Of a DNA stretch of 64,000 nucleotides, positions 1,124 through 45,219 are shown in pieces. The position numbers were made by a program, and so were the translations under genes. The DNA lies in NCBI GenBank assembly GCA_963835575.1, contig CAWIGG010000002.1, positions 198,141-262,140 on the forward strand, in the 5' to 3' direction. This stretch comes from an uncultured Spirochaetota bacterium. GTDB lineage: Bacteria; Spirochaetota; Brevinematia; Brevinematales; JAOACQ01. The first letter of the stretch is position 1; each line of letters opens with the position of its first letter. A model generated the notes under the pieces. It saw only the letters and a list, made by a program, of their open reading frames with translations. It searched no databases and was not told the DNA's origin.

Positions 1124-3643
1124 ATGAAGAAAATCTTTGGTTTAAAGAGAATAATCGCTCTTTTAACCTTGATGACGGCGGGCATCGTTATTTCTTTGTT
1201 TATCGCTTCATGCTCTACGTCGATTAATTCTGGCGGTAATAATGGTTTTACAGACCAGAATTCTCAAACTAAGGCAGGAGGCTATAACTACGGTGAAGCC
1301 CTCCAGAAGGCCATTATGTTCTACGAGTTCCAGAGGTCTGGAACAATCCCTTCAGATCAGAGAGACAACTGGAGAGGGAACTCCGGTATGAGCGACGCAG
1401 TCCTCGGCGGTTACTATGACGCCGGCGACCATGTCAAATTCAACCTTCCCATGGCCTTTTCAGCCAGTATGATGGCCTGGTCTCTCTATGAAAACGCTTC
1501 GGCTTATACGGCCACTGGTCAGACCGCTTATATTCAGAAAGCGATCCAGTGGGTTTGCGACTACCTTGTCGGATGCCAGAGCGGAAACATCTATCAGATC
1601 GGCGACGGCAGTCTGGACCATGCCTGGTGGGGTCCCTGCGAAGTCATGCAGATGTCAAGACCTGCGGCATCATCGGCTCAATGTTCTGCCGTATGGGGAG
1701 AAAGCGCCGCCGCTCTTGCCGCCGCTTCCAAAGTGCTCGGCAATTCTTCCTACCTGTCGGCTGCGAAGACCTATTTCAGCAAGGCTGAAAGTGCTATGAG
1801 CGATTCCGGTTATACCGCCGCTAACGGTTATTACAATTCCTGGAGCGGTTTCTATGATGAACTGGTCTGGGCGGCAGTATGGCTCTATATTGCCTCCGGT
1901 GACAGCACATATTTAACGAAAGCTCAAACCTATTTTGGAAATATCGGGATGGAAGGACAGTCTTCCAACGTTGCTTACAAATGGACACAATCTTGGGACG
2001 ACAAGCATTACGGCGCAGAGCTTTTGCTTGCCAAGTTAACAGGCGGCGCCCAATATAAAACAGCCATTGAAAACAACCTGGACTACTGGACCACAGGCGG
2101 TCCTGACGGCTCCAAGATTACTTATACTCCCAAGGGTCTGGCCCATCTGGATAACTGGGGATGTATCAGGTACGCTATGGGCGCTTCAACTCTAGCTTTT
2201 TGCTATGCCAACTGGTCCGGCGCGAATGCCACAAAAGCCGCCACTTACAAGTCTTTTGCTGAAACGCAGGTCAATTATGCTCTCGGCAGCACAGGCAGAA
2301 GCTATATAATCGGTTTCGGAAGCAATTATCCCCAGCATCCGCACCACAGAACGGCTGAAAGCTCATGGGCAGACAGCCAGACAGTACCGCCCTATTGCCG
2401 TCATACACTTATCGGCGCATTGGTCGGCGGTCCTGACGCAAGCGACAATTTTACCGACGATGACAGCCAGTATCAATACACTGAACCGGCCTGCGACTAT
2501 AACGCATGCTTGATCGGCGCACTGGCATATATGTATAATTCCTACGGCGGTACACCGGTAGCCAACTTGACGGCTAATGAAACTCCTTCCAACCTGGAAT
2601 ATTTTGTTCAGACTGCGCAAAATGCCACAGGAAATAACTTCTTTGAAGTCAAGTTTGATTTGTTCAACGAGTCAGGGTGGCCGGCAAGGGCGCTTTCAAA
2701 CTCTGTGTCATTCCGCTACTTTTTTGATATTTCCGAACTTGTTGCAAAAGGGCATACCGCTAGTGATATTACCCTTACCGTCAATTACAATCAGGACAGC
2801 GCGGGTGTAGCCACACTGAAGCAGTGGAGCGGGAATATCTATTATATCAATGTCAACTGGACCGGATTGATCTATCCCGGCGGACAGTCGATGTACAAGA
2901 AAGAAATTCAGGTCAGGTTTACTTATCCGACAGACGTGACAAACGATAACTCCAATGACTGGTCCTACCAGTATTTTAACAATGTAGTTACAACCGGAAC
3001 AACAAATAACCCCAATGTGCCTGTATACATCAATGGGACGAAAGTTTATGGTAATGAACCCGGCGCAGCTTCTTCTTCAGCTGCTTCATCTGTAGCCGCG
3101 AGTTCACGTCCAGCATCCTCAGTAGCAGCATCCTCAATAGCAGCAAGCTCAGTGGCAGCATCTTCATCATTGGCCGCATCATCCATAGCTGCTAGTTCAC
3201 GGTCGAGCGTAGCATCCTCAGTAGCAGTCAGCTCGAGCCGGTCCAGTGTTGCGTCTTCAGTAGCAGTTTCCAGCGTTGCATCTTCAGTTGCTGTTTCCAG
3301 CGCAGCTTCTTCAGTCAGCGGCGGATATGCGGTTAATTACACCGTCAATAATGACTGGGGCGCGGGCGCTACATGCACGGTGACCATTAAGAACAATTCC
3401 GCTACAGCCCTCAGCAGCTGGTCTCTTGTCTGGACTTTTGCAGGCAACCAGGCGATCACGCAGATCTGGAGCGCAACGCAGACTTCCAGCGGTGAAACGG
3501 TGACTGTCAATAACCTGAGCTACAATAATGTCATCGGCGCGAACGGCGGAACGCAGAGCTTCGGCTTCAATTTGAGCTACAGCGGATCCAATGCAAAACC
3601 GACTTCGTTCACTTTGAACGGAACGGCATGTACACTTTACTAA
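1124..3643 (+). CDS. GH9 endoglucanase (Cel9A/E4-type) - CBM3c - Ser linker - CBM2-like; predicted lipoprotein
   Basis: AGGAGG RBS. Signal peptide ending IASC|S. GH9 motifs GGYNYGEALQKAIMFYEFQRSG, YYDAGDHVKF, QYTEPACDYNA. CBM3c-like FFEVKFDLFNESGWPARA..SFRYFFDISE. Terminal GGYAVNYTVNNDWGAGATCTVT...LNGTACTLY. Confidence 0.9.
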   Translation: MKKIFGLKRIIALLTLMTAGIVISLFIASCSTSINSGGNNGFTDQNSQTKAGGYNYGEALQKAIMFYEFQRSGTIPSDQRDNWRGNSGMSDAVLGGYYDAGDHVKFNLPMAFSASMMAWSLYENASAYTATGQTAYIQKAIQWVCDYLVGCQSGNIYQIGDGSLDHAWWGPCEVMQMSRPAASSAQCSAVWGESAAALAAASKVLGNSSYLSAAKTYFSKAESAMSDSGYTAANGYYNSWSGFYDELVWAAVWLYIASGDSTYLTKAQTYFGNIGMEGQSSNVAYKWTQSWDDKHYGAELLLAKLTGGAQYKTAIENNLDYWTTGGPDGSKITYTPKGLAHLDNWGCIRYAMGASTLAFCYANWSGANATKAATYKSFAETQVNYALGSTGRSYIIGFGSNYPQHPHHRTAESSWADSQTVPPYCRHTLIGALVGGPDASDNFTDDDSQYQYTEPACDYNACLIGALAYMYNSYGGTPVANLTANETPSNLEYFVQTAQNATGNNFFEVKFDLFNESGWPARALSNSVSFRYFFDISELVAKGHTASDITLTVNYNQDSAGVATLKQWSGNIYYINVNWTGLIYPGGQSMYKKEIQVRFTYPTDVTNDNSNDWSYQYFNNVVTTGTTNNPNVPVYINGTKVYGNEPGAASSSAASSVAASSRPASSVAASSIAASSVAASSSLAASSIAASSRSSVASSVAVSSSRSSVASSVAVSSVASSVAVSSAASSVSGGYAVNYTVNNDWGAGATCTVTIKNNSATALSSWSLVWTFAGNQAITQIWSATQTSSGETVTVNNLSYNNVIGANGGTQSFGFNLSYSGSNAKPTSFTLNGTACTLY
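3065..3319 (+). repeat. Ser-rich linker-coding degenerate tandem repeat
   Basis: AASSSAASSVAASSRPASS...VAVSSSRSSVASSVAVSS between CBM3c and CBM2-like module. Confidence 0.8.
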
Positions 3644-3671
3644 GCAGAGTTAATTTTGAGTAACTAAATAA

Positions 3672-3709
3672 AAGCAGAGGTTGGGGCATGCCCCGGCCTT
3701 TGCTTCTTA
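3672..3709 (+). terminator. Hairpin terminator candidate
   Basis: AAGCAGAGGTTGGGGCATGCCCCGGCCTTTGCTT palindrome after the stop codon; weak T tract. Confidence 0.5.
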
Positions 3710-3754
3710 AATAGGAAAGAATTCTAATATCATCCTGAAAAAAGGAGGAGAAAA

Positions 3755-5596
3755 ATGATAAAGAGAAACAAAGTGAAACTAATTTTATTAGGTTTAGGTG
3801 CAATGTTTTTTGTTCTCCAGTTTTCTACCTGCTCATTACAGTCTAATCAGGAAACTGGACAGCAAAACAATACGACGGCTGTCAATACACAGAAAGCCAC
3901 GGTTTCCAGCGTCGGGCGTCTGACAGGCGTCAACTGGTTCGGATTTGAAACCGGAAACTTCTGTCCCCATGGTCTCTGGTCCAGAGACTATAAATCCATG
4001 TTGAAGCAGATCAAAGACCTCGGTTTTAACTGTATTCGTATGCCCTGGTGCAACGATATGCTGTCGGCAACTCCCAACAGCATACAGATCAACGCTTCAG
4101 GCGTGGACGCGTACACAGGTCAGACCGGCCTGAACATGGACCTGGCCGGACTTTCTTCAATCCAGGTAATGGACAAGGTAATCGATGAGGCAACCAGGGT
4201 CGACGGTATAAAGATCATCCTGGACAACCATTCAAAGACACATGACAACTATAATAATGAAACATTATGGTACACATCATCCTGTTCGGAAAGCCAGGGT
4301 ATTTCGGATTGGCTTACTCTAATCAACCGTTATAAGAATAACGCGTATGTTTGCGGGGCCGATCTGAAGAACAAGCCTCATGGCAATATGACTACAGGTA
4401 TGAGACCGCCTGCGACCTGGGGTTATGATGAACCCGGTCAGGGAACGACAGACTGGAAAGCGGCCGCCGAAAGGATCGGTACCGCCATCCTTAACGCCAA
4501 TCCCAATATGATCATCATCGTGGAAGGCGTGGAATGCTATTACAATTATCCTACGGATACTGTTACCAACTTCTTCTGGTGGGGCGGCGAATTATCAGGT
4601 GTTGCAGACCATCCTATCACTGCTATTCCTTCTGCCCAGCTGATGTATTCTGTTCATGAGTACGGTCCCGAAGTCTATAATCAGTCCTGGTTCCAGGATT
4701 CCACATTCCCGAACAATATGCCTGCCATCTGGGACAAACATTACTATTTTATTAAAAAGAATGGCATAGGCTCTCTGTTCTTCGGTGAATTCGGCATAAC
4801 GGAATCCGCAGTAGAAGCCGGCGGAGTGGCAGCCACATGGTATAAGAACTTTATGGCATATATCGGAACCGCCAACAGCTGGACATTCTGGTGCATCAAC
4901 CCGGATTCCGGCGACACCGGCGGTATATTACAGAACAACTGGGTTACTGTAGAGCCGTCTAAATACGCGGTTTTGAAACCCTATCTGGCCGCTCAATTCT
5001 CGCCTCTCGGCGGAGCAAGTTCATCTTCATCCTCTACTGTATCTTCAGTTGCTGCGAGTTCGAGCCGGGCAGCATCCTCAGTGGCAGTCAGTTCGAGCAG
5101 ATCGAGCGCAGCTTCTTCAGTCGCTGCAAGCTCCAGCCGGGCCGCATCCAGCGTTGCTTCATCTATAGCCGCTAGTTCACGGTCCAGTGTTGCTTCTTCT
5201 GCAGCGGTTAGTTCGAGCCGGTCGAGCGCCGCATCCAGCGCCGCGGCTTCCAGTACTGCCGCTTCATCAGGCGGCGGATATGCTGTTAATTATACGGTTA
5301 ATAATGACTGGGGCGCAGGCGCCACATGCACGGTGACCGTTAAGAACAACAGCGCTACGGCTGTAAATGGATGGTCCTTAGTATGGACTTACGCTGGCAA
5401 TCAGACGCTGACGCAGATTTGGAACGCCACATATACCGCAAGCGGAGAGACCATTACCGTCACAAACGCAAGCTTTAACAATGTCATAAGCGTAAACGGC
5501 GGGACGCAGAGCTTCGGCTTCAATCTGAGCTACAGCGGGTCCAATGCAAAACCGGCTTCGTTCACTTTGAACGGAACGGCTTGCACAACATACTAA
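3755..5596 (+). CDS. GH5 cellulase-type lipoprotein - Ser linker - CBM2-like; acid/base Glu replaced by Lys
   Basis: AGGAGG RBS. Signal ending FSTC|S. GVNWFGFETGNFCPHGLWSRDYKSMLKQIKDLGFNCIRMPW. DLKNKPHG where paralogues have DLKNEPHG. Nucleophile region FFGEFG retained. Confidence 0.85.
   Translation: MIKRNKVKLILLGLGAMFFVLQFSTCSLQSNQETGQQNNTTAVNTQKATVSSVGRLTGVNWFGFETGNFCPHGLWSRDYKSMLKQIKDLGFNCIRMPWCNDMLSATPNSIQINASGVDAYTGQTGLNMDLAGLSSIQVMDKVIDEATRVDGIKIILDNHSKTHDNYNNETLWYTSSCSESQGISDWLTLINRYKNNAYVCGADLKNKPHGNMTTGMRPPATWGYDEPGQGTTDWKAAAERIGTAILNANPNMIIIVEGVECYYNYPTDTVTNFFWWGGELSGVADHPITAIPSAQLMYSVHEYGPEVYNQSWFQDSTFPNNMPAIWDKHYYFIKKNGIGSLFFGEFGITESAVEAGGVAATWYKNFMAYIGTANSWTFWCINPDSGDTGGILQNNWVTVEPSKYAVLKPYLAAQFSPLGGASSSSSSTVSSVAASSSRAASSVAVSSSRSSAASSVAASSSRAASSVASSIAASSRSSVASSAAVSSSRSSAASSAAASSTAASSGGGYAVNYTVNNDWGAGATCTVTVKNNSATAVNGWSLVWTYAGNQTLTQIWNATYTASGETITVTNASFNNVISVNGGTQSFGFNLSYSGSNAKPASFTLNGTACTTY
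5016..5269 (+). repeat. Ser-rich linker-coding degenerate tandem repeat
   Basis: ASSSSSSTVSSVAASSSRAASSVAVSSSRSS... up to GGGY. Confidence 0.8.
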
Positions 5597-5708: not shown

Positions 5709-6038
5709 ACAGAGAAAGCGTTTTAAAAAATAAAGGAGGATAAAAACCTGACTAAGGTTTTAAGTAATAACAGAAAAATAAGGTTTATGATAAAAAATTA
5801 TATTTTATAAAAAAGAAAGGGTTTTGAATCAAGAAAGGATATAATAAAAATATTTTATGGTATTGAAAGCATATCTTTTTTCACTCAGTCCTTTCCTTTA
5901 AGGCTTTATTACCCTTTTATTATTAATCTTTAACGATAAGAACGGGATGCGTTATTATGTTTTTATAATATTTTTTTAGTAAAATAATGGTATTGAGGTT
6001 AAAGTAGTACAAATATTTTAAAAAGGAGTGTGAAAGTT

Positions 6039-7850
6039 ATGAAGAGAATTCTTTCGGCAGTTATTTTACTCATTGCCGCCGTATCCTGTTCGGTTTTGGA
6101 TAACGGCAGTAATTCAGTAAATAGCGGGCAGAATCAGACTGGAAATACTGTAAAAGCGGCGCCGGCCGGGTTTGTTTACGCGCAGGGCACGCAGTTCATG
6201 ATCGACGGAAAGCCTTTCTATTTCGCCGGCTGTAACGCCTACAGCATCTTTACCGTCGGAGAGGACTGGATGACCAATTCAACCAACGATATTGAAAACT
6301 ACGCGATCGGCAAGACAAACATTGATACCTTTATGAGCAACATGGCGGTCATCGGCGTCAAGGTCTTGAGGACCTGGGGCTTCGATCACCAGGCCTGGAT
6401 GGGATATGAACCCGCGAATGGTGTATATAATGAAGCGCAGTTCATGAAATTCGACTATATCCTGCAGTCAGCCCAGAAATACGGCATCAAGGTGATCATT
6501 GTACTGGAGAATTATTGGGCGGATTATGGCGGTATAGATGCGGTACTGCAATGGTTTGGCCTTCCTTCAGGGGATTATGCGTCCAGGGTAGCATTTTTTA
6601 CAAATGCGAGCTGCATTCAGTCTTATAAAAATTATGTCCAGCACTGGTTAACCAGGCTCAACCATTACACATTGAAGACTTACAGCGCCGATCCCGCAAT
6701 ATTTTCCTGGGAATTGATGAACAAACCGAGAGGCCCGAATGGGGATAGTACCGGTACCATATTGAGGGCCTGGGTTGATCAAATGGGTTCGTATATCAAG
6801 AGCCTGGATCCGAACCATATGGTCAGCGCCGGTTTAGAGGGTCATGGAACAAAATACGGCTTCGGAGGCGATGAAGGCAACCCGTTTGTTTACATACATC
6901 AATCGCCTTATATTGATTTCTGCACGGCCCATCCTTATCCCGATGAAAGCTGGGCAAACCTTACTACAAACCAGGCTGCGGCATTGGTCGATGCATGGAT
7001 TGCCGACGCGCATGGCGTCGTCGGAAAGCCTTTTGTAATGGAGGAGTTTAATACTCATAACAATAAACAAGCCTACTGGACGGCCATGTATACGGAAATT
7101 GAAAATAAAAACGCCGCAGGGGACTGCTTCTGGAATTTTAATCTTTCTTCGACAAGCGATTTCGATATGCTTCCCGGGGATGCAGTTTTGACAGGTGTAT
7201 TTATGCCCCATGCCGCTAAAATGGCCTCCAAAAGCGGACCAGTCGGTTCTTCCAGCAGCGCGGTATCCTCAGTTGCTGTGAGTTCCAGCCGCTCCAGTAC
7301 TGTTTCATCAGCTGCGGTAAGTTCGAGCCTGTCGAGCGCAGCTTCATCAACGGCAGTCAGTTCGAGCAGATCAAGCGCGGCTTCATCAACAGCGGCAAGC
7401 TCCAGCAGATCGAGCGCAGCATCCTCTGTAGCAGTCAGCTCGAGCCGATCCAGTGTTGCGTCTTCAGTAGCAGTTTCCAGTGTTGCATCTTCAGTTGCTG
7501 TTTCCAGCGCAGCTTCTTCAGTCAGCGGCGGATATGCGGTTAATTACACCGTCAATAATGACTGGGGCGCGGGCGCTACATGCACGGTGACCATTAAGAA
7601 CAATTCCGCTACAGCCCTCAGCAGCTGGTCTCTTGTCTGGACTTTTGCAGGCAACCAGGCTATAACCCAGATATGGAGCGCCAGTCAGACTACCAGCGGT
7701 GAAATAGTGACTGCCGTGAATTTAAGCTACAATGGCACGATCGGCGCGAACGGCGGGACGCAGAGCTTCGGTTTTAATCTGAGCTACAGCGGTTCGAACG
7801 CAAAACCAACGTCGTTCACTTTGAATGGAACGGCATGCACACTTTATTAA
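6039..7850 (+). CDS. GH5 beta-mannanase-type lipoprotein - Ser linker - CBM2-like; acid/base Glu replaced by Lys
   Basis: ATG 6039 sits 10 nt after GGAG (the ORF-track GTG 6030 is less likely). Signal ending AVSC|S. FVYAQGTQFMIDGKPFYFAGCNAY, VLRTWGF. WELMNKPRG where paralogue 27264 has WELANEPRC. FVMEEF retained. Confidence 0.8.
   Translation: MKRILSAVILLIAAVSCSVLDNGSNSVNSGQNQTGNTVKAAPAGFVYAQGTQFMIDGKPFYFAGCNAYSIFTVGEDWMTNSTNDIENYAIGKTNIDTFMSNMAVIGVKVLRTWGFDHQAWMGYEPANGVYNEAQFMKFDYILQSAQKYGIKVIIVLENYWADYGGIDAVLQWFGLPSGDYASRVAFFTNASCIQSYKNYVQHWLTRLNHYTLKTYSADPAIFSWELMNKPRGPNGDSTGTILRAWVDQMGSYIKSLDPNHMVSAGLEGHGTKYGFGGDEGNPFVYIHQSPYIDFCTAHPYPDESWANLTTNQAAALVDAWIADAHGVVGKPFVMEEFNTHNNKQAYWTAMYTEIENKNAAGDCFWNFNLSSTSDFDMLPGDAVLTGVFMPHAAKMASKSGPVGSSSSAVSSVAVSSSRSSTVSSAAVSSSLSSAASSTAVSSSRSSAASSTAASSSRSSAASSVAVSSSRSSVASSVAVSSVASSVAVSSAASSVSGGYAVNYTVNNDWGAGATCTVTIKNNSATALSSWSLVWTFAGNQAITQIWSASQTTSGEIVTAVNLSYNGTIGANGGTQSFGFNLSYSGSNAKPTSFTLNGTACTLY
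7246..7525 (+). repeat. Ser-rich linker-coding degenerate tandem repeat
   Basis: GSSSSAVSSVAVSSSRSSTVSS... up to SGGY. Confidence 0.8.
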
Positions 7851-7902
7851 AAAATGTTGAGAGCGGCCCTGATATTTAGGAATGAATAAGATAGTTAAAA
7901 AT

Positions 7903-7935
7903 CCTCCCTCATTTATTTGAGGGAGGAACGCTTTT
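7903..7935 (+). terminator. Rho-independent terminator
   Basis: CCTCCCTC-atttattt-GAGGGAGG then T-rich tail. Overlaps the ORF-track TTG start at 7917, which I therefore reject. Confidence 0.65.
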
Positions 7936-17874: not shown

Positions 17875-19845
17875 GTGAAAAATTCAAAATTCGCTTTGCT
17901 TTCAGGATTGATGCTATTGGTACTTCCATTATGTTTGACATGCAGCCTGAATATGTCAGGTAACAATGACAAAGGCGCCATTTCTGAAACAAGCGTGAAA
18001 AAAGCGACCACAGGTTTCTCCATCAGCGGCAGGAATCTGATTGACGCCAATGGCAATCAGTTCATTTTAAGAGGTATTGCCCATGCGCATGTCTGGTATG
18101 AGAGCCAGATTACCAATGCTTTGAGCGGCATCAAAAGCGTGGGTGCCAACTGCGTCAGGATTGTCCTGGGCTGCGGAGTCCAGTGGGGCCCGAATACAGC
18201 CGCCGATGTGTCCAATGTGATCGCATTATGCAAGGCAAACAGGCTGATCGGAATACTCGAAGTGCATGATACCACCGGTTACGGGGATGCCTCAGCGGCA
18301 TGCAGCCTGGCCACGGCGGTGACATACTGGCAGTCGATCAAGAGCGTCCTGGACGGACAGGAAAAATACATCATTATCAATATCGGGAATGAGCCGTACG
18401 GCAACAACAATGTCGCCAACTGGGTCGCTGATACGGAGAACGCTATTAAATCGATGAGAAGCGCCGGGTTCCAGCATACGCTGATGGTAGATGCTCCAAA
18501 TTGGGGGCAGGATTACTCTTTTATGATGCTGACCAATGCCACAGCGGTGTTTAATTCCGATGTGAACAAGAATACGATTCTCTCGGTACATATGTATGAA
18601 GTTTATCAAACCATCACACCCATTACAAATTATATAACTCAATTTATGGCCTTGAATCTTCCCCTTGTGATCGGCGAGTTTGGATGTTCAAATAACGGGC
18701 AATATGTGGATGCGGCCGATGTCATGGCGACAGCACAGTCGCAGGGAATCGGCTACATGGCCTGGTCCTGGTGTGGGAACAGCTCCCCAGTTCTGGATAT
18801 GGTCGTTAATTGGGATGCCAGCCAGTTGACGAGCTGGGGAAATATGGCGATTAACGGTGCCAACGGCATTAAAGCCACTGCTAAAGAATGCACGGTATTC
18901 AGCGGTGTATCATCCAGTTCGGTTTCCAGTATTTCGTCCGCCGTGAGCTCCAGCCGCTCGAGTGTCGCATCTTCAGTGGCTGTGAGTTCGAGCCTGTCCA
19001 GTATTGCTTCTTCAGTTGCTGTCAGCTCCAGCCAGGCGAGCAGTATAGCCAGTTCCGCTTCATCCTCAGTCCAGTATCAGAATATTACTCTTCCGTTCAG
19101 CTTTGACGGCGCGGGAGAATTATACTGGCAGACAAGCGGTACGATCACCAGCATGAATTCCTGGAATCTTGATGCGCTGGATGTGAATGGGACAAGCTTT
19201 AAAAATGTGTATGTCGCCGGAAGCAGCCTGCCCGCGAAACAGAATGGATACTACTACATTCACTATAAGGGGTCATATTCCTATAGTCATGTTGAAATTG
19301 CCGGCACATCAGGATCGGTGAGCAGCAGTTCGATAGCTGTCAGTTCCAGCCCGGCAAGCAGTGTCGCTTCTTCAATAGCGGCAAGCTCCAGCCGTGCAGC
19401 CTCTTCAATAGCAGCTAGCTCTAGCAGATCGAGTATTGCATCTTCAGTAGCAGTCAGCTCAAGCCTGGCCGCATCCAGTGTCGCTTCCAGTGCGGCATCG
19501 AGCACGGCTTCCAGCACAAGCGGCGGGTATGCAGTGAATTATACCGTCAATAATGACTGGGGCGCGGGCGCCACAGTCACGGTAACCATAAAGAACAATT
19601 CCGCAACGGCCCTTTCGAGCTGGTCTCTTGTCTGGACATTTGCGGGCAATCAGCAGATCACTCAGATCTGGAGCGCCACGCAGACAACCAGCGGCGCGAC
19701 CGTTACTGCGAATAGTTTAACTTATAACGGCGCGATCGGCGCGAACGGCGGGACGCAGAGTTTCGGCTTCAATTTGAACTACAGCGGCTCGAACGCCAAA
19801 CCGACGTCGTTTACTCTAAACGGGACGGCATGTACGCTCTATTAG
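17875..19845 (+). CDS. GH5 (subfamily-8-like) beta-mannanase - linker - X module - linker - CBM2-like; lipoprotein
   Basis: GTG start 5 nt after AAGGAGG, 48 nt after the previous stop (operonic). Signal ending LTC|S. FILRGIAHAHVWY, GANCVRIVL, ILEVHDTTG, INIGNEPYG, MVDAPNWGQD, VIGEFG. Confidence 0.8.
   Translation: MKNSKFALLSGLMLLVLPLCLTCSLNMSGNNDKGAISETSVKKATTGFSISGRNLIDANGNQFILRGIAHAHVWYESQITNALSGIKSVGANCVRIVLGCGVQWGPNTAADVSNVIALCKANRLIGILEVHDTTGYGDASAACSLATAVTYWQSIKSVLDGQEKYIIINIGNEPYGNNNVANWVADTENAIKSMRSAGFQHTLMVDAPNWGQDYSFMMLTNATAVFNSDVNKNTILSVHMYEVYQTITPITNYITQFMALNLPLVIGEFGCSNNGQYVDAADVMATAQSQGIGYMAWSWCGNSSPVLDMVVNWDASQLTSWGNMAINGANGIKATAKECTVFSGVSSSSVSSISSAVSSSRSSVASSVAVSSSLSSIASSVAVSSSQASSIASSASSSVQYQNITLPFSFDGAGELYWQTSGTITSMNSWNLDALDVNGTSFKNVYVAGSSLPAKQNGYYYIHYKGSYSYSHVEIAGTSGSVSSSSIAVSSSPASSVASSIAASSSRAASSIAASSSRSSIASSVAVSSSLAASSVASSAASSTASSTSGGYAVNYTVNNDWGAGATVTVTIKNNSATALSSWSLVWTFAGNQQITQIWSATQTTSGATVTANSLTYNGAIGANGGTQSFGFNLNYSGSNAKPTSFTLNGTACTLY
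18907..19068 (+). repeat. Ser-rich linker-coding repeat (linker 1)
   Basis: SSSSVSSISSAVSSSRSSVASSVAVSSSLSS... Confidence 0.75.
19069..19305 (+). other. Unassigned ~80-aa X module (putative carbohydrate-binding)
   Basis: VQYQNITLPFSFDGAGELYWQTSGTITSMNSWNLDALDVNGTSFKNVYVAGSSLPAKQNGYYYIHYKGSYSYSHVEIAG, bracketed by two linkers. Recurs at 34548 and 36720. Confidence 0.6.
19306..19521 (+). repeat. Ser-rich linker-coding repeat (linker 2)
   Basis: TSGSVSSSSIAVSSSPASSVASSIAASSSRAASS... Confidence 0.8.
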
Positions 19846-20066: not shown

Positions 20067-22460
20067 TTGGAAACTAAACAAAATCCCGGTAAAAAGGCGC
20101 TTCCCATATTGTTTACATTAGCGGGTTGTCTAATCCCTGTTTTTATTATTTTGATAGTCTATTCTATATACCGCATTCCGGAAAAAGATAAATCCAGCAT
20201 AATTCAATTGACCGGTGTCTGGAAAATTCAGGAAGGTTTAAACCCGGATTGGACCAGGCCGGGCCTGGATGATTCAGGCTGGAAAGAAATCAAATTACCC
20301 GGAAGCTTTTATAACCAGGGCTTTCATGAAAAGTACCTGACATTAAGAAAAGATTTTACTTTAAATACAAATATGGAAAACCAGGACCTGTTTTTATTCA
20401 TCGGCGGCACCGGCGGTTCAATGGGTATGGTTTATATGAACGGATTTAAAATCGGCGAAATCGGAATGATTGTGAACGGCAGAAAGACACAGGGGGCCGA
20501 TGAAAAATTCGGGTTTTATATTAATAAACATAATATCTTAAACGGGGCGGCCGATGTTAAAAATACAATCAGCATTGAATTTGATACTATAACGCCGAGC
20601 TATGACGGTGTGCAGGACCCAAGGATCCTTCTGGGTACCTACAATAGTTTAAGATCATATTATGAGAAAAATATTTCGGCAAGTTTGTTTTTTCAATACG
20701 GGATCATATTTACCGGCATATTTGCCCTGATCATTTTATTTTTACTTTTGATGACTGAATGGGGATCACCCAACCGCAATAAATATGTTTCTACCATATT
20801 CTTTGTGTTTTCGGCAATTTTATATAATTTATTTTTTACGAATGTTTTTGTCAGATATGTTTTTGATACAATATTACTATCCAAATTATTAATTTTATCG
20901 ATTGTTTTTTTATGCCCGGCAACCCTGGATTATGTCCAGTATTTCTTTACCAATAAGACGAATATATTGTCAAAAATAAACAGAGTGGTTTGTTTGCTTG
21001 TTGTTGTAATGGTTTTTGCCATTCAGGATTTTGTCATAGTCAAATTGATCCATGGCTATTTTATCATGTACTTTTTTGTTGTAATTGTATATATATGTGC
21101 CTTTTGTGTGGCCCATACTCTTAAAGCCCGGGAAAAGTACAATGCCGTTGTTATTACTGTTTCGATTATAATCGGCGCGGTTTCAGGTATTTCCGACCTG
21201 TTGACCAACTTGGGATTGATTCATATGCCGCTTTTATTCAGCATTACCATTTCCATTTTTATTGTGATGAGCGCCATGGTGATTATCGCTGATTTTATAA
21301 AGATCAGCGATTATAATAAAACACTTTCTCTGGAATTGAGCCAGTTGAACGTGAACCTTGAAGCCAAGGTTTCTGAAAGGACAAAGGAATTGAGCCAGGC
21401 CAATGAAAAACTGAAGAAGCTGGATACTGTTAAAAACGATTTTATTGCCAATATTACCCACGATTTCCGGTCTCCTCTCACAGTCATACTGAATACGGCG
21501 GATTTAAACTTAAAAGAACACAAAGACAATCCTTATAAAAGTGAATTTGAAATGATACTGTCTTCTTCCTACCGCATGAAAAATTATATTGACCGGCTTC
21601 TGGATTTAGCGAAGATGGATGCGGGGGCCATAAAACTAAAAATCAGAAAAACAGATATTGTACAATTTTTAGAAACAATCGCAAGTTATTATCAATCGGC
21701 GATAATAAATACCAACATCAAAATTATAACCAGTTTTCCTGAAATTCCGGTGGAAAATTTTTATACTGACGAGGAAAAATTGGATGAGGTAATCAGCAAT
21801 ATCCTGTCCAATGCGATCAAATATGTCAGTATTGAAAACGGGATTATAGAAATTGAGGTGAGAGATGAACCGGATACGGTCCTGATTATTATATCAGACA
21901 ATGGCATAGGAATACCTGAAGATAAACTGGAATTTATTTTTGAGAGGTTTGAACAGCTGGAAAGCGGGAGAAATACAAAATTCAGCGGGAGCGGGATCGG
22001 TCTTGCTTTTGCAAAACAGCTGGTGGAATTTATGAAAGGAAAAATATGGGCGGAATCGGGAGGTGAAAATAAGGGCTCCAGATTTATGATCAGGCTGCCG
22101 AGAGGCAAAGCCGCTTTTGATGATCAAGAAATTTCAACCGAATCAATGAAAGCGACATCCTTATCCCGTTTCAAGAAATTGGTAGAGTATGATATCGGTA
22201 GAAAAATTCAAAAAGAAGAACTGGAATTTTATATCAAGGAAAGAAATAAAGAAAACGAATTTGTCCTCAAAAAAAGCGTGATATTAATAATTGACGATGA
22301 AAAATCAATCGCCGGAATCGTGATGAACTATCTTCTAATCAATGGATTTGAAAACTTTATTATCGCTAATAACGGTAAAACCGGCCTGAAAGCCGTGTAT
22401 CAATACACGCCGGATGTCATATTGTGCGATTATAACATGCCCGGGGCTCACGGGCAGTGA
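20067..22460 (+). CDS. Sensor histidine kinase (7TMR-DISMED2-like sensor + 7 TM + HisKA + HATPase_c) with N-terminal half of a receiver domain; 5' part of a frameshifted hybrid gene
   Basis: TTG start. Extracytoplasmic LTGVWKIQEGLNPDWTRPGLDDSGWKEIKLPGSF...LTLRKDFTL. Multiple TM helices. H-box ANITHDFRSPLT. DNGIGIP, GSGIGLAFAKQLV. REC start VILIIDDEKS...DVILCDYNMPG, then a premature stop. Confidence 0.8.
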   Translation: METKQNPGKKALPILFTLAGCLIPVFIILIVYSIYRIPEKDKSSIIQLTGVWKIQEGLNPDWTRPGLDDSGWKEIKLPGSFYNQGFHEKYLTLRKDFTLNTNMENQDLFLFIGGTGGSMGMVYMNGFKIGEIGMIVNGRKTQGADEKFGFYINKHNILNGAADVKNTISIEFDTITPSYDGVQDPRILLGTYNSLRSYYEKNISASLFFQYGIIFTGIFALIILFLLLMTEWGSPNRNKYVSTIFFVFSAILYNLFFTNVFVRYVFDTILLSKLLILSIVFLCPATLDYVQYFFTNKTNILSKINRVVCLLVVVMVFAIQDFVIVKLIHGYFIMYFFVVIVYICAFCVAHTLKAREKYNAVVITVSIIIGAVSGISDLLTNLGLIHMPLLFSITISIFIVMSAMVIIADFIKISDYNKTLSLELSQLNVNLEAKVSERTKELSQANEKLKKLDTVKNDFIANITHDFRSPLTVILNTADLNLKEHKDNPYKSEFEMILSSSYRMKNYIDRLLDLAKMDAGAIKLKIRKTDIVQFLETIASYYQSAIINTNIKIITSFPEIPVENFYTDEEKLDEVISNILSNAIKYVSIENGIIEIEVRDEPDTVLIIISDNGIGIPEDKLEFIFERFEQLESGRNTKFSGSGIGLAFAKQLVEFMKGKIWAESGGENKGSRFMIRLPRGKAAFDDQEISTESMKATSLSRFKKLVEYDIGRKIQKEELEFYIKERNKENEFVLKKSVILIIDDEKSIAGIVMNYLLINGFENFIIANNGKTGLKAVYQYTPDVILCDYNMPGAHGQ

Positions 22461-23361
22461 AGTTCATGACGCGATAGTTGATAACCCGAAATACAATCAA
22501 ATTCCATTTATATTTTTGTCCGCTGTGGCGGATAGAAATTTAATTATTGAACGCAGGGAAAAAGGGGCAAATGCTTATTTAAAGAAACCGATAGATGAAA
22601 ATGATCTTGTGCTGACGGTAAATCTTCATCTGAAAAAATATTTTGAATATTTAAAAACCCTGGAGCTTGCGGCCATAGATGAACTAACAGGATTATACAA
22701 CAGGCGGGAAATCATCAAGCGGCTGCATGAAGAGCTGGCTGTCAGAAAATTTATGGAATTATCGCTTATATTTTTTGATGTAGACCATTTTAAAGAAATA
22801 AACGACCGGTACGGCCATCCCATCGGCGATCGGGTTTTAAGAACTATAGGAAGAATCATAAAAGGAAACCTCAGGCCCTATGATATATCGGCAAGATATG
22901 GAGGAGATGAGTTTCTGATAATCCTGCCTCAAACAAATTCGGAAAATGCCGTTCGGGTAGCGGAAATATTAAAAAAGAGTTTCGCCGAAGAAAAAATCCT
23001 TCAAAGTGAGAATGTTCTTGCTATTACCTGCAGTTTCGGTATTTCATCACTGATCGGCAACCAGAAAGACCTTGAAAAAGAACTGCATTTGAAGGATTTA
23101 AAAAAGATTTATGAGATAAAAGATTCCGCGAAAGCAGATTGGAAAATGATTCGGGAGACAAAAGAAAAGATTGCCGAAGTTCTAATAAGTTTTGCCGACA
23201 AAGCGCTTTATCAATCAAAAAAAACGGTGTGCGAAGACTGCGGATATTATTCTGAAAAAGAAGAAGATTTTCATAATAACAAATGCCCGAAATGCGGAAG
23301 TAAAAAACTGTCCGGCAGGAATAAAGTCAGTCTGTATTCGCATGATGAAAGCGCTGGTTAA
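22414..23361 (+). CDS. Rest of receiver domain + GGDEF diguanylate cyclase + C-terminal Cys4 zinc ribbon; 3' part of the frameshifted hybrid gene
   Basis: From 22447 reads LTGSEVHDAI...FIFLSAVAD...ANAYLKKP (REC continuation). FFDVDHFKEINDRYGHPIGDRVL, ARYGGDEFLIILP. CEDCGYY...CPKCGSKK. Confidence 0.8.
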   Translation: MSYCAIITCPGLTGSEVHDAIVDNPKYNQIPFIFLSAVADRNLIIERREKGANAYLKKPIDENDLVLTVNLHLKKYFEYLKTLELAAIDELTGLYNRREIIKRLHEELAVRKFMELSLIFFDVDHFKEINDRYGHPIGDRVLRTIGRIIKGNLRPYDISARYGGDEFLIILPQTNSENAVRVAEILKKSFAEEKILQSENVLAITCSFGISSLIGNQKDLEKELHLKDLKKIYEIKDSAKADWKMIRETKEKIAEVLISFADKALYQSKKTVCEDCGYYSEKEEDFHNNKCPKCGSKKLSGRNKVSLYSHDESAG

Positions 23362-23482: not shown

Positions 23483-24355
23483 GTGCGCCCGGCAGGGCGC
23501 ACGTTCTTGCGGGTGAAAGTCCCGTATGCACCCGGTAAGGGGAATCCCTCACCAGTTTGTGAACTTCTCCGGGCAGCCGGACAAACTGGTGAGGGACAGA
23601 CGGCAAGGGTGTCCGCCGTGAGGCGGAATCTGAAGGAAGCTGCAGGCAAAGCACTGGTCTGACGAACAGAAACCGCATAGAGGCGGCACTGCTGGGTGAG
23701 ACGGCAATTATCGTTAAAGCCCGATACTTACACAGAAAGCAATGGCGTAGATGCGGCAGACATAAGTGTGAAGGAACGAGCGCATTACCCGGGGAGGTCT
23801 GACAGCCTGCCACATATTGGCTATTGTCATCGAAAGGTGATAAGAGGGGTTTTCAGAAGTCAGCAGAAGCCATAGTAACCTCTTGACCGGAGGCGAAGGG
23901 CAGAACCAAACTATAGGAGTACCGCTATGAATCCTGACACGGTAACTTACGCAGAAGCGGAAGGAAACTTTCCGGCTTTGACAAAGGATAGGGACGGAAT
24001 TCCGAAGAATAGCCAAAGCGCGTGTATCCGTGCAGAGAGTCAAAGAAGGAGTACACCGGATGAAACAAATTTAATAGAGCGTCTGGTCAAACGCGAGAAC
24101 ATGCTGGAAGCTTATCACAGGGTGGTAAGCAATAAGGGGGCGGCGGGAGTTGACGGAGTCACTGTAAAACAGCTAAAAGGCTTCATCAACAAACATATGA
24201 ACATCGCCTTTCCTAAGAAATTATTCGACAGTATGGGACTCGTATCGATGCTGAACAAGATTTGTATTTATCAGAAATTATATTTTGGAACCGCCGTATA
24301 CGGAACCGTACGTACGGTGGTGTGAGAGGTCGGCGGGTGTAAACCCGCCTCCTAC
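23483..24355 (+). mobile_element. Group II intron, bacterial class C-like, with internally deleted IEP ORF
   Basis: 5' GTGCGCCCGG. Domain V hairpin CCGCCGTATACGG-AAC-CGTACGTACGGTGG (24291-24320) with a CGC triad and 2-nt bulge. Short domain VI ending ...CCTAC. Residual RT ORF. Position directly 3' of a terminator stem-loop. Confidence 0.75.
23927..24325 (+). pseudogene. Remnant of the intron-encoded reverse transcriptase/maturase (N-terminal RT0 region fused to the extreme C-terminus)
   Basis: LIERLVKRENMLEAYHRVVSNKGAAGVDGVTVKQLKGFINKH joins directly to ...FPKKLFDSMGLVSML...GTAVYGTVRTVV. RT domains 1-7 and X are absent. Confidence 0.7.
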
Positions 24356-24437
24356 TCAATTATTTTTTCTACAGGAAGATAAGAATGCTCCGGATGTCTT
24401 TTCATGTAATCTATCTTAAAAAATTTCTGTTAAGCAA

Positions 24438-27263: not shown

Positions 27264-29156
27264 ATGAACATGAGACAAAAATCACAATTATCAAAAAGTA
27301 TTATCCTGATTTTTCTGGCTTTAATAATGGGCTCCTGTACGGTTTTATCACCGGACCACGTTAATAGCGGCAGTCAGATAAATAATAATACTGAGAGAGC
27401 AACGGACATGAATAGTTTTGTCAAGACTTCCGGAACGCAGTTTGTCGTCAGCGGGAAAACTTTTTATTTTAACGGGGCCAACCAGTATTATCTGTTCTAC
27501 AAATCCCATGCCATGGTTACCGAGGTTATCACCGATGCCGCCGCTCTGGGACTTACCGTTATCAGGACCTGGGGTTTCTGCGACGGAGCGCCAAAGGACA
27601 ACAACTTCGGCTTCCAGCAGAGCGCCGGGGTTTATGATGAGGCGACATTCAAACAGATGGATTTTACGATCAATACCTGCAAACAATACGGCATCCGTCT
27701 GGTTATCCCGCTGGTCAATAACTGGGACGATATGGGCGGTATGGACCAGTATGTCATATGGGCAGGAGCTTCAGCTCATGACGATTTTTACACAAACGTG
27801 CAGTGCCGGACCCTTTATAAGAGCTATGTCAATTATTTTTTGAACAGGACGAATTCTATAACGGGAGTCGTGTATAAAAACGATCCCACCATCATGATGT
27901 GGGAACTGGCCAATGAGCCCCGCTGCGACAGCGACATGACCGGCATGAAGCTGAGCAACTGGATCAATGAAATGGCCGGTTATATCAAGAGCATCGATCA
28001 GAACCATCTGGTTTCGATCGGTTCAGAAGGATTTTTCAAGGGGGTCGGATACGGCTATCTTTATGACGGCTCTTCGGGATGTGATTTTGTCGGCCATAAC
28101 AGGATCCAGTATATTGACGCGTGTTCCGCTCATCTTTATCCATCCAGCTGGGGCATTTCCACGAACGATGCCGTCAACTGGATCATTATGGGGGCGACGA
28201 ACGCTCATGTCACAGTAGGCAAGCCGTATTATCTGGGTGAATTCGGTTATCCGGATCATACCGCGCGCAATCAGATTTATCAGGACTGGTACAATACGCT
28301 TTATGCTTACAACGCGGACGGGGCCATGTTCTGGCTTCTGAGCGGCCATCAGGATGACGGTTCCCTCTATCCGGACTATGACGGTTTTACCGTCTATTAT
28401 CCCCAGGACACAAATACATGCGCCGTTATATCGGCATACTCCGTCAAGGCAAACGCCGAAACCGGGCAAACCCCGGCTTCCGCGGCCAGCAGTACTGCTG
28501 TATCTTCTGTCAGTTCGAGCCGGTCTTCCAGCAGTGCGAGCAGCGCAGTTTCCTCGTCAGTCATTTCCAGCCGCTCGAGCTCGAGCGCGGCAATTTCATC
28601 GGCAGTCAGTTCGAGCCGGTCGAGCGTTGCATCCTCAATTGCCGTAAGTTCGAGCCATTCCAGTGCAGCTTCTTCTGCGGCTGTGAGTTCGAGCAGATCG
28701 AGCGTAGCATCTTCAGTTGCGGTAAGCTCCAGCCGGTCGAGCGTAGCTTCTTCAGCAGCAGTCAGCTCAAGCCTTGCCGCATCCAGTGTTGCAGCTTCTA
28801 GCGTGGCTTCCAGCACAGCAGTTTCATCAGGCAGCGGATATGCAGTTAATTACACCGTCAACAATGACTGGGGTGCGGGCGCAACATGCACAGTGACGAT
28901 TAAGAACAATAGCGCGACAGCCCTCAGCAGCTGGTCTCTTGTCTGGACTTTTGCAGGCAACCAGGCTATAACCCAGATATGGAGCGCCAGTCAGACTACC
29001 AGCGGTGAAACAGTGACTGCCGTGAATTTAAGCTACAACGGTACGATCGGCGCGAGCGGCGGGACTCAGAGCTTTGGCTTCAATCTGAGCTACAGCGGAT
29101 CCAATGCAAAACCGGCTTCGTTCACTTTGAATGGGTCGGCGTGCACGCTTTATTAA
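27264..29156 (+). CDS. GH5 (subfamily-7-like) beta-mannanase lipoprotein - Ser linker - CBM2-like
   Basis: ATG 27264 after GGGAGAAAAG. Signal ending IMGSC|T. FVKTSGTQFVVSGKTFYFNGANQYY, VIRTWGF, WELANEPRC, YYLGEFGYPD. Confidence 0.85.
   Translation: MNMRQKSQLSKSIILIFLALIMGSCTVLSPDHVNSGSQINNNTERATDMNSFVKTSGTQFVVSGKTFYFNGANQYYLFYKSHAMVTEVITDAAALGLTVIRTWGFCDGAPKDNNFGFQQSAGVYDEATFKQMDFTINTCKQYGIRLVIPLVNNWDDMGGMDQYVIWAGASAHDDFYTNVQCRTLYKSYVNYFLNRTNSITGVVYKNDPTIMMWELANEPRCDSDMTGMKLSNWINEMAGYIKSIDQNHLVSIGSEGFFKGVGYGYLYDGSSGCDFVGHNRIQYIDACSAHLYPSSWGISTNDAVNWIIMGATNAHVTVGKPYYLGEFGYPDHTARNQIYQDWYNTLYAYNADGAMFWLLSGHQDDGSLYPDYDGFTVYYPQDTNTCAVISAYSVKANAETGQTPASAASSTAVSSVSSSRSSSSASSAVSSSVISSRSSSSAAISSAVSSSRSSVASSIAVSSSHSSAASSAAVSSSRSSVASSVAVSSSRSSVASSAAVSSSLAASSVAASSVASSTAVSSGSGYAVNYTVNNDWGAGATCTVTIKNNSATALSSWSLVWTFAGNQAITQIWSASQTTSGETVTAVNLSYNGTIGASGGTQSFGFNLSYSGSNAKPASFTLNGSACTLY
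28476..28829 (+). repeat. Ser-rich linker-coding degenerate tandem repeat
   Basis: ASAASSTAVSSVSSSRSSSSASS... Confidence 0.8.
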
Positions 29157-33215: not shown

Positions 33216-33254
33216 AATCCGTTTCAAAATAAATTGATAAGGAGGAAAATTTTT

Positions 33255-37496: not shown

Positions 37497-38743
37497 TAAT
37501 AATGAATATTCCGGGCTGGCGATATACGTCAGCCCGGTTATATAAAAAAATAGGAATTGTAATAGTATGATGAAAATCAATACTTTTATATAAACTCTTG
37601 TTTTTGTAGAATAAACAACCAAACTGGCAAGTTTTTAATGCGTCTTGATTGAAGTCTCTGCCGTGTTAAGTGTGAGGTTTTAAATAATAATGAAATTTTT
37701 TGTTTCAATAATGAATATAAGAAAGGAGTATGCTATGAAGCTATTGAAGATGAAAGTTTTATTACTGTCCGGAAGCATGCTGTGCTTTTTATGGTCATGC
37801 TCGTAAGCCCTTTGAGTGAGAAAAGTCAGTCATTGTCTTTCACCGCGGTGAAAGCGACGGCGAGCGGAAAGTTTCTGGGTAATATCTGGGGAGGCAGTTC
37901 CGAGCCCCTCAATTTCAGTACATACTGGAACCAGGTGACTCCTGAAAACGCCGGGAAATGGGGTTCCGTGGAATCCAGCCAGGGAACCTATAACTGGAGC
38001 GCATTGGACGCGCAATACAGTTATGCTAAATCCAGAGGATATCCTTTTAAATTCCATAATCTGATCTGGGGCAGCCAGCAGCCTGCCTGGATCAGCACTT
38101 TGTCGGCCGCGAACCAGGTGCTGGCGGTCATCGATTGGATTTCGAATGTCGGCGCGAGATACAGCAATTTAGACTTCATAGATGTGGTCAATGAACCTCT
38201 GCATTCGCCGCCCTCCTATTCGAATGCGATGGGCGGAAGCGGCTCCACCGGCTGGGACTGGATTGTTTTTGCATTTCAACAGGCGCGGAAGTATTGCGGG
38301 AATGCAAAACTGCTTATCAATGAGTATGGCGTGGAGGGCAACACCACGGCCATGGCAAACTACACGAATATCATCAGTATTCTTAAGGCTTCGAATTTGA
38401 TAGATGGAGTGGGAGTCCAGGGGCATGATTTCAGTCTTGACGGCTGTTCACTAAGCACGCTGTCGAACTGCTTGTCTATGATTGCGGCCACAGGATTGCC
38501 GATCTATATTTCGGAGCTTGATCTTTCATCTACTGATGACACTGTCCAGCTTGGTCTTTATCAGAAGTATTTCCCGGCATTGTGGGAAAATCCGGATGTC
38601 ATGGGTGTTACTTTGTGGGGTTATATTCAAGGCTCAATATGGACTTCCAATGCTTTTCTTCTCTACACAAACGGCACGGAACGCCCTGCTCTGACATGGC
38701 TGACGAATTATGTGAGAGGCGGGGCTTCTTCTGCAGGCGGATC

Positions 38744-39188
38744 CATCCAGGTTTTTTTCTACAACGGAAATACCAGTACATCAGTAAACAGCCTTTCCCT
38801 TAATTTTCTTATATCCAATACGGGACTCTCCATCATCAATTTAACCAATGTGACTCTCCGCTATTACTACACCATTGACAGCGCAACGAATCAGATCTTC
38901 AACTGTAATTACTCGACTTTAGGCAACAGCAGTGTGACCGGAAGTTTTGTAACGATGCCGAATCCCGGGCCGACTGCAGACAGATATGTTCAGATCGGCT
39001 TTACGAGTGCGGCCGGAAGCCTGTATGCCGGGAATAGCGCTGTGGTTCAAGTTGCGGTAAATAAAAGTGACTGGTCCAGTTATATACAAACAAATGATTA
39101 TTCATTTAATTCCTCGGCCGCAACATATACGTCCTGGTCAAAAGTGACCGGGTATATCTCAGGCACGCTTGCATTTGGCACAGAGCCG
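38744..39188 (+). other. CBM3-like module inside the GH10 gene
   Basis: IQVFFYNGNTSTSVNSLSLNFLISNTGLSIINLTNVTLRYYYTIDS...NKSDWSSYIQTNDYSF...VTGYISGTLAFGTEP. Confidence 0.75.
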
Positions 39189-39521
39189 TCTTCCGGCAGT
39201 TCCTCATCCATCTCAAGTGTGAGTTCCAGTCTATCCAGTTCATTAAGCAGTTCCGTTATTTCCTCGAGCAGCAGCCGTTCCGCCGCATCATCTTCGGTCA
39301 GCTCCAGCCTGAGCTCGAGTAAATCGTCGAGCAGTGTGTCCAGTCCTGCTTCGAGCAGCAGCCGTTCCAGCGTTGCATCCAGCATTTCCTCATCAGTAGC
39401 AGTGAGTTCCAGCCTTTCCAGCGTTGCGTCATCGGCAGCGGTGAGCTCGAGCCTGGCAGCATCCAGTGTTGCTTCAAGCGTTGCTTCCAGTGCAGCATCG
39501 AGCGCGGCATCCAGCACAAGC
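39189..39521 (+). repeat. Ser-rich linker-coding degenerate tandem repeat
   Basis: SSGSSSSISSVSSSLSSSLSSSVISSSSSRS... Confidence 0.8.
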
Positions 39522-45211: not shown

Positions 45212-45219
45212 AATAAAAA

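Follow-up and report, generated by a model that had tools for sequence, protein, structure and literature searches.

Acid/base Glu-to-Lys substitution in a GH5 mannanase-like lipoprotein, a candidate glycan-binding protein from a glycoside hydrolase cluster of an uncultured Spirochaetota bacterium

The window analysed here, a stretch of 64,000 nucleotides from the genome of an uncultured Spirochaetota bacterium (GenBank assembly GCA_963835575.1, contig CAWIGG010000002.1, positions 198,141 to 262,140 of the forward strand), harbours a large cluster of glycoside hydrolase genes for the breakdown of plant fibre. One open reading frame (ORF) of this cluster, at 6030-7850 on the forward strand, encodes a mannanase-like protein of glycoside hydrolase family 5 (GH5) with Lys in place of the catalytic acid/base Glu. 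This protein, referred to below as the target, is on balance probably a hydrolysis-dead, cell-tethered glycan-binding protein. The substitution, its uniqueness among the relatives, the retention of all other parts and the absence of accelerated evolution are observed. Loss of hydrolysis would follow from the retaining mechanism of GH5 and clan GH-A, and we infer that binding was retained, that the protein lies on the cell surface, and that the change was selected.

Lysine at the acid/base position of a GH5 domain

In retaining enzymes of clan GH-A, the Glu that follows the Asn of strand 4 is the general acid/base, and a Glu of strand 7 is the nucleophile. The target carries Asn-Lys-Pro in place of the GH5 Asn-Glu-Pro (N-E-P) motif at the end of strand β4. 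Codons 6720-6728 of the forward strand read AAC AAA CCG, in frame, within WELMNKPRG, with the Lys codon AAA at 6723-6725 (translation around the motif, IFSWELMNKPRGPNGD). The Lys is residue 232 of the ORF, 229 of the deposited protein P0001, and 189 in the domain numbering, to which 43 is added to obtain ORF numbering. In alignments with the solved GH5 mannanases 8gf3, 9m20, and 1rh9, the Lys lies opposite the Glu of N-E-P, and the FVMEEF segment of the target lies opposite the nucleophile motif. The second Glu of FVMEEF, encoded at 7044-7046 (forward strand) at the end of strand β7, is thus the catalytic nucleophile by alignment, and it is kept.

The N-E-P motif is kept in 118 of the 119 best relatives of the target (48-65% identity), and could not be located in the remaining one (P0088). 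The closer relatives found with HMMER among 1.84 billion cluster representatives are also canonical, with NEPRC in P0361 (78% identity) and NEPRY in P0362 (68%). Among 143 representatives obtained by clustering at 50%, all but five aligned segments possess Glu at the aligned position. The five exceptions are YKP in a fragment with a scrambled N-terminus, N-G-P in a truncated protein, two degenerate N-terminal GH5-like domains of two-domain proteins, and one gap, so that no genuine Lys was found at the acid/base position in any other of the 143 representatives. Altogether, Lys is absent from this position in all of about 260 relatives, among them the 78% sister P0361, and the nucleophile position is Glu in 146 out of 146 aligned segments. 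Literature searches did not return any published Glu-to-Lys acid/base variant of a GH5 enzyme.

A different type of degeneration was seen in P0421 and P0457 (also P0413 and P0496), proteins of 750-820 amino acids with two GH5_mannosidase-like domains. In P0421 and P0457 the N-terminal domain lacks both the Asn and the Glu of N-E-P (DAP and DRP, respectively), and the C-terminal domain is canonical. Judging from these sequences, the superfamily has a further way of arriving at inactive GH5 domains.

The domain that carries the Lys, encoded at 6159-7250 (forward strand; 364 residues), is of the GH5 catalytic type with a (β/α)8 barrel and belongs to a mannanase clade (PF26410, GH5_mannosidase), according to homology, AlphaFold2, and Foldseek. 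It matches solved GH5 endo-mannanases with E-values of 7e-47 (8gf3) and 3e-44 (1rh9). The AlphaFold2 model, built with 65 relatives, reached a predicted local distance difference test (pLDDT) score of 93.8 and a predicted template modelling score (pTM) of 0.93, and shows the eight strand/helix units of the barrel; the Lys is three residues past strand 4, and strand 7 ends with the nucleophile. The top Foldseek matches are GH5_7 mannanases, with TM-scores of 0.82-0.85 (8gf3, 0.85). Besides the nucleophile, the target keeps the Arg of β2, the Asn of β3, the His and Tyr of β6, and the Trp of β8; the columns R71, N118, N188, H258, Y260, E296, and W325 (domain numbering) are invariant with the target included. 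The engineered E202A mutant 4nrr, with bound manno-oligosaccharides, is also among the Foldseek matches. Since engineered acid/base mutants of GH5 mannan-active enzymes were crystallised with manno-oligosaccharides, such proteins bind substrate.

The precomputed annotation assigns PF26410 to P0001, and the relatives carry PF26410 too, while NCBIfam matches in the target are confined to its linker and carbohydrate-binding part. Identity to the best solved GH5_7 enzymes is only 26-32%, and the match to 8gf3 is far weaker (E 7e-47, as above) than that of the canonical mannanase gene at 27264 of the window (E 1.7e-105). Many relatives bear dockerins, fitting the description of GH5_17, and are often Bacillota proteins; the relatives are divided between Bacillota and metagenome-assembled genomes of Spirochaetales. 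From these comparisons the target appears to belong to a clade separate from GH5_7 proper, nearest to GH5_7 and possibly GH5_17.

The remaining parts of the target gene are intact. The ORF runs without interruption across 606 codons, and none of the signs of a pseudogene (frameshift, stop codon, accelerated change) was seen. ATG 6039 is the likely start, giving the 603-amino-acid protein P0001, and this exact protein, with Lys, is deposited in NCBI/ENA on a 2.05-Mb contig. Direct reading of the sequence revealed a Shine-Dalgarno-like AAGGAG at 6023-6028 (forward strand), 10 nt ahead of the ATG. The translation of 6039-6089 (forward strand) starts with a lipoprotein-type signal peptide, MKRILSAVILLIAAVS, and ends with the lipobox Cys (codon 6087-6089); this lipoprotein signal, MKRILSAVILLIAAVSC, is a sequence pattern, from which tethering of the target to the surface or membrane is predicted. 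A repetitive Ser/Ala-rich linker (7251-7538, forward strand, from the translation; repeat families D2 and D3) follows the GH5 domain, and the C-terminus is a CBM2 cellulose-binding module (7539-7847, forward strand; PF00553, E 3.8e-28; repeat family D1), one of 18 copies in the cluster. No anti-sigma domain was found in the target, the order being signal peptide with lipobox, GH5, linker, and CBM2. Bases 7410-7709, in the linker and CBM2 part, share 95% DNA identity with 3203-3502 of the GH9 gene located two genes upstream, suggesting that modules were exchanged or that gene conversion took place. A terminator-like hairpin with a 10-bp stem lies at 7902-7927 (forward strand), as a consensus match only; the T-run past it is weak on the forward strand (tail ACGCTTTTAT) and stronger on the reverse strand.

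The neighbouring cellulase and rates of protein change

The gene adjacent to the target, at 3755-5596 on the forward strand, encodes an E1-type GH5 cellulase with CBM2, also a lipoprotein, and carries the same Glu-to-Lys substitution. It reads AAC AAG CCT (KNKPHG) at 4370-4378, the Lys codon AAG being at 4373-4375. Alignment with Acidothermus E1 (1ECE; E 9e-88) places its Lys207 opposite the Glu of DLHNEPH. All 119 relatives of this cellulase possess Glu at this position, and the Lys is unique to it. The remaining glycoside hydrolases of the window that were checked retain their catalytic motifs.

Two canonical GH5 genes, also neighbours of each other, are located further downstream. The first, at 27264-29156 (forward strand), encodes a GH5_7 mannanase with CBM2 and an intact NEP, reading GCC AAT GAG CCC CGC TGC (WELANEPRC) at 27909-27926. 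The second, at 29504-31288 (forward strand; start also given as 29477), is the canonical paralogue of the Lys-bearing cellulase, with intact NEP and 83% identity across the full-length protein (87% within its catalytic domain); another gene, at 31374, is 69% identical to the cellulase. The preliminary description had taken the target and its neighbour as a duplicated mannanase and cellulase pair converted in parallel into non-hydrolytic forms. It had read the codons of the target, of its neighbour, and of gene 27264 correctly, as well as the retention of the nucleophile region and the other modules and the adjacency within both pairs. The duplication does not hold for the mannanase: the catalytic domain of the target is no more than 35-36% identical to that of gene 27264, the two belong to different clades, and 27264 can thus not be called a close paralogue. 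The genes also come in the opposite order, with cellulase-mannanase at the first site and mannanase followed by two cellulases at the second. From these sequence comparisons, the cellulase, and not the target, has a true paralogue in the window. Of the parallel conversion, the plausible part is a non-hydrolytic binding role. What the target shares with the other cluster genes is the C-terminal linker and CBM2 (18 copies). Gene conversion between the two Lys sites was considered and rejected, as these have only 8 nt in common and lie in unrelated clades.

The closest relative of the target is the metagenomic protein P0361, with 78% identity and intact Glu. Its gene (locus L013, ENA ERZ25039509 contig_152672, 1844-4732) encodes a lipoprotein with CBM3 and CBM64, not CBM2, and is followed by the gene of a GH10 lipoprotein 83% identical to the product of gene 35571 of the window. 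A related organism thus has a similar system with other binding modules.

Synonymous sites of the target are saturated against every relative compared, and therefore no ratio of nonsynonymous to synonymous substitution rates (dN/dS) was estimated for the mannanase. The proportion of synonymous differences (pS) ranged from 0.83 to 0.91 for the nearest DNA loci; for the 78% sister it was 0.75, with a proportion of nonsynonymous differences (pN) of 0.136. The amino acid differences between the target and P0361 were instead polarised with P0362 and the family majority as outgroups, which placed 31 changes on the target branch and 27 on that of the sister, with 22 ambiguous (binomial p = 0.69). For the cellulase and its canonical paralogue, the catalytic domain has a dN/dS of 0.08 at a dS of about 1.1. 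When 31374 serves as outgroup, the Lys lineage of the cellulase receives 19 changes and the Glu lineage 15. Deviations at conserved columns number 5 in the Lys cellulase against 6 in the canonical paralogue at the 95% level, and 16 against 20 at the 80% level. Neither Lys lineage shows accelerated protein evolution. Either both Lys changes are very recent on long branches, or purifying selection has acted since the change.

Proposed role and alternative explanations

In the mechanism we propose, the replacement of the acid/base Glu by Lys would end hydrolysis and leave the fold, the -1 subsite residues, the nucleophile, the linker, and the CBM2 in place. The cleft would still bind a chain of β-mannan or glucomannan, as in engineered acid/base mutants. 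CBM2 would hold the target on cellulose, and the lipid anchor would hold it on the cell, making it a glycan-capture or adhesion protein within a set of about 18 lipoprotein glycoside hydrolases. The neighbouring E1-type cellulase may have undergone the same minimal conversion and play the same role for glucan chains.

The numbers of changes bear on this proposal. As a rough estimate, the acid/base codon would receive one of the excess changes with a probability of a few percent per gene, and of below about 1e-3 in both genes, even if the same residue is not required. Both Lys lineages carry at most a handful of excess changes, which makes it very unlikely that chance alone struck the same catalytic residue in both adjacent genes. 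Simple loss of function can be reached by hundreds of mutations, whereas very few would keep fold and binding while abolishing hydrolysis, Glu-to-Lys being one of the two that take a single transition. This argument favours a retained non-hydrolytic role over random decay. A wider proposal is more tentative, and we hold it at somewhat below even chances: the two adjacent GH5 lipoproteins of different clades, both converted by Glu-to-Lys and both kept by selection, may form a glycan-capture or adhesion layer like the surface glycan-binding proteins of Bacteroidota.

Several points weigh against a selected binding role. Binding, expression, and localisation of the target are predictions from its sequence and model. 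If both Lys changes are very recent, equal branch lengths say nothing on later selection. The target gene was seen in one genome only, and no close relative was found in metagenome contigs. Apparently real frameshifts in the kinase-GGDEF gene and in a GH10 copy of the cluster indicate that gene inactivation is occurring at this locus, and for each of the three affected glycoside hydrolases the window contains another gene with a similar predicted activity that could stand in for it. Finally, a remodelling of the catalytic face specific to the target, which had seemed to accompany the substitution, is largely withdrawn.

In the first comparison, the target deviated at 10 of 51 conserved positions of the catalytic face, against a mean of 1.7 in the relatives, with none of 118 relatives reaching 10. 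After new relatives, including the 78% sister, were added, nine deviations were counted, of which five are shared with the Glu-bearing sister P0361 (D29S, H81M, E121x, Y192x, and Y327F, domain numbering, here and below). The face had therefore diverged for the most part before the Lys arose, and in the sister this divergence goes together with an intact Glu. Changes on the face make up 9 of the 31 on the target branch and 6 of the 27 on the sister branch, which is not significant. On this face, E78Q, F83Y, A122D, and E189K are specific to the target, and these four are what still stands of the remodelling; C/Y192G, Q193P, and D194N follow just after the Lys. On the sister branch, H229Q is the sole change at face positions of comparable conservation. 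This contrast in conserved-face changes between the two sequences is suggestive but not significant. Off the catalytic face, the deviations of the target at conserved positions are ordinary.

Among the alternatives, the one that survives best, although we consider it unlikely, is that the target is an incipient pseudogene, in which redundant copies recently lost function under relaxed selection or drift and the Lys is the first disabling hit, with no new role. Backups exist in the window, namely 27264 for mannan, and 29504 and 31374 for glucan. The same locus contains the frameshifted GH10 copy and kinase-GGDEF gene, whose frameshifts are probably real, and very recent hits would leave equal branch lengths as well. 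Nevertheless, random first hits should be spread over the approximately 370 codons of the catalytic domain or consist of frameshifts and stops, so that the same Glu-to-Lys change occurring twice is very unlikely on this explanation; moreover, the ORF, the signal peptide, the linker, the CBM2, and every other invariant residue are intact.

It is rather improbable that the target is still an enzyme, either by transglycosylation, on a substrate that needs no acid catalysis, with an acid/base supplied from elsewhere (for example the new Asp 122), or on an anionic substrate pairing with the Lys. The nucleophile and the -1 subsite residues are kept, and the changes near the cleft that are specific to the target (E78Q, A122D, E189K, and D194N) shift its charge. 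However, acid/base mutants of retaining clan GH-A enzymes are orders of magnitude less active on natural glycosidic bonds, no GH5 enzyme with Lys at this position was found described in the literature searches, and the neighbouring cellulase has its Lys without accompanying changes in the cleft. Alternate mechanisms were suggested for GH5 proteins with incomplete machinery, which might "possess alternate mechanisms" (Aspeborg et al. 2012, PMC3526467). GH5_7 enzymes are capable of transglycosylation. A use of the Lys itself in altered chemistry, such as transglycosylation or recognition of anionic glycans, has only a marginal chance of being correct.

Very little probability is given to an extracellular sensor, in which the inactive domain would signal the presence of oligosaccharides to the 7TMR histidine kinase encoded at 20067. 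The kinase, of 7TMR-DISM type, lies within the same cluster, and a precedent exists in Rsi24C, whose GH5 module lost the acid/base and serves as a carbohydrate sensor (PMC3526467). However, the GH5 domain of Rsi24C is fused to an anti-sigma factor, while the target is stand-alone with CBM2. The signalling from the target to the kinase assumed in the preliminary description found no support, as the kinase gene lies at a distance of 12 kb and not next to the target gene, no link between the two was detected, and the kinase gene carries a +1 frameshift inside its receiver domain.

A sequence or consensus error, with G as the true base at 6723, is equally hard to credit. AAA is one transition from GAA, and the Lys codon is covered by a single assembly, in which two frameshifts occur. 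Look-ups of the exact sequences of P0001, P0122, and three ORFs of the window yielded no hits. Such an error, however, would need the same change independently at the catalytic codon of the neighbouring gene, the deposited protein has the Lys, and the target-specific changes C/Y192G, Q193P, and D194N bunch right behind it. A systematic base-calling error at AACGARCC was rejected because six other copies of this motif are intact in the window, and a CpG deamination hotspot, given that AAC followed by GAR makes a CpG, was rejected on a CpG observed/expected ratio of 1.09. The independent Logan assembly of run ERR10755942 matches 45070-49477 of the window in 4407 of 4408 bases with no gaps, the only stretch of the window that was found in such an assembly. 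From this region, which is away from codon 6723, the assembly appears accurate, and the absence of gaps in 4408 bp means that the frameshifts of the window are probably real.

Cluster setting and known non-catalytic relatives

The window contains about 18 glycoside hydrolase genes, each ending in CBM2, among them four GH9, several GH5, two GH10, and one each of GH116, GH12, and GH8. All cluster glycoside hydrolases except the frameshifted GH10 copy possess a hydrophobic N-terminus ending in Cys (lipobox). SusC/D-like domains were not found among the window proteins. The 18 copies of the CBM2 module, of about 300 nt each and accompanied by Ser-rich linkers, extend over 269-45182 on the forward strand, at the ends of the glycoside hydrolase genes. 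They share 66-88% identity with a reference copy, and 18999-19298 and 36650-36949 are 100% identical, which suggests ongoing module exchange or gene conversion. Two further forward-strand genes of the cluster have catalytic domains without a Pfam match. Gene 33234-35348 possesses a CNEP motif, CBM64, and CBM2, and gene 40396-43098 possesses a GNES motif, CBM6, and CBM2, with a weak NCBIfam match to the arabinofuranosidase ArfA.

The ORF of the 7TMR-DISM histidine kinase (20067-22460) and a receiver/GGDEF ORF (22414-23361), both on the forward strand, are one split gene. The +1 frameshift is located near 22441-22447 in CCCGGGG, inside the receiver domain, and removal of one G of CCCGGGG yields a single kinase ORF of 1098 amino acids (DVILCDYNMPGLTGSEV). 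The split gene would be either a pseudogene or a homopolymer slip. In the GH10 gene at 37782-39845 (forward strand), the signal peptide and lipobox (MKLLKMKVLLLSGSMLCFLWSCS, about 37730-37810) are in another frame than the mature protein, with a 1-nt frameshift directly after the lipobox; its paralogue at 35571-37496 is intact. Both of these cluster genes look genuinely broken.

Between the GGDEF gene and a GH9 gene, a group II intron at 23612-24360 (forward strand) has lost most of its reverse transcriptase ORF. Rfam matches cover D1-D4 (23612-23901) and D5/D6 (24289-24360), and in the remnant ORF at 23927-24325 (132 amino acids) only an N-terminal stretch resembles the start of a reverse transcriptase. 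Adjoining the cluster on the reverse strand (45951-49303), a PMT-family (GT39) protein O-mannosyltransferase and a GT87-like membrane glycosyltransferase are encoded, which are, speculatively, candidates for O-glycosylation of the Ser-rich linkers. Downstream of the cluster, 51292-60635 (forward strand) encodes a fused Eco57I/MmeI-type restriction-modification enzyme of 1030 amino acids, an SMC/AAA-type ATPase, an S1/P1 nuclease, and a RhuM-family protein, and is likely a mobile or defence region.

Non-catalytic GH5 modules were described by Aspeborg et al. 2012 (PMC3526467) in GH5_30, in a lipoprotein subgroup near GH5_8, in one GH5_48 member, and in Rsi24C-GH5 of C. thermocellum, which lost the acid/base and binds cellulose. 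The target resembles these modules in its GH5 fold with incomplete catalytic machinery, Rsi24C-GH5 in the loss of the acid/base, and the subgroup near GH5_8 in being a lipoprotein. The described non-catalytic subgroups are on long branches suggesting rapid evolution, and the single GH5_48 member is "still similar to other members" (PMC3526467); the target is like the latter case, a single member otherwise resembling its active relatives. Unlike the described modules, it belongs to another clade (PF26410) and carries CBM2; unlike the subgroups, it shows no acceleration relative to its Glu-bearing sister; and unlike all of these cases, the same change is present in an adjacent, unrelated GH5 gene. 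The anti-sigma factor to which the Rsi24C module is fused is a transmembrane protein, in contrast to the stand-alone lipoprotein architecture of the target. Compared with the active GH5_7 mannanases BlMan5_7 (8gf3), tomato LeMAN4a (1rh9), and T. reesei Man5A (1qno), the target has the same fold (TM-score 0.77-0.85) and the same placement of the NxP and nucleophile motifs, and differs in its Lys for the acid/base Glu and in its distinct clade.

A similar arrangement is known from the xylan utilisation locus of Bacteroides ovatus, in which BACOVA_03431 is a surface lipoprotein with an inactive GH10 domain that binds xylan (Rogowski et al. 2015, PMC4491172). Both are lipoproteins with a (β/α)8 domain of clan GH-A short of a catalytic residue, encoded among active glycanases. 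However, BACOVA_03431 is a GH10 protein of a SusC/SusD locus that lost the nucleophile and the -2 subsite, and its polysaccharide binding was demonstrated, whereas the target is a GH5 protein in a window without SusC/D genes, lost the acid/base, and is inferred to bind. Rogowski et al. liken BACOVA_03431 to the GH18 lectins (PMC4491172). These chitinase-like lectins likewise keep the glycosidase fold and cleft, lost catalytic residues, and work as lectins; they differ from the target in fold family, organisms, and biology, and serve as an analogy only.

The phenomenon is already documented in GH5, GH10, and GH18, so that the conceptual gain is modest and no new principle is involved. What is distinctive here, as read from the sequences, is the identical minimal change in two adjacent genes of different GH5 clades that are otherwise untouched, and the fact that they are embedded in a lipoprotein/CBM2 system, devoid of SusC/D genes, of a non-Bacteroidota bacterium. 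Automated annotation would label both genes as active glycanases, and if they encode binding proteins, the enzyme inventory of the cluster is over-counted. If the proposed role is true, the system has dedicated chain-capture proteins that evolved from enzymes by the change of one residue. The target is a clean, testable candidate for a natural conversion of an enzyme into a lectin. A minimally altered natural pair of this kind would offer a clean system for how glycoside hydrolases turn lectin-like, and it bears on whether lectin-like glycosidases may aid cell adhesion or the retention of oligosaccharides.

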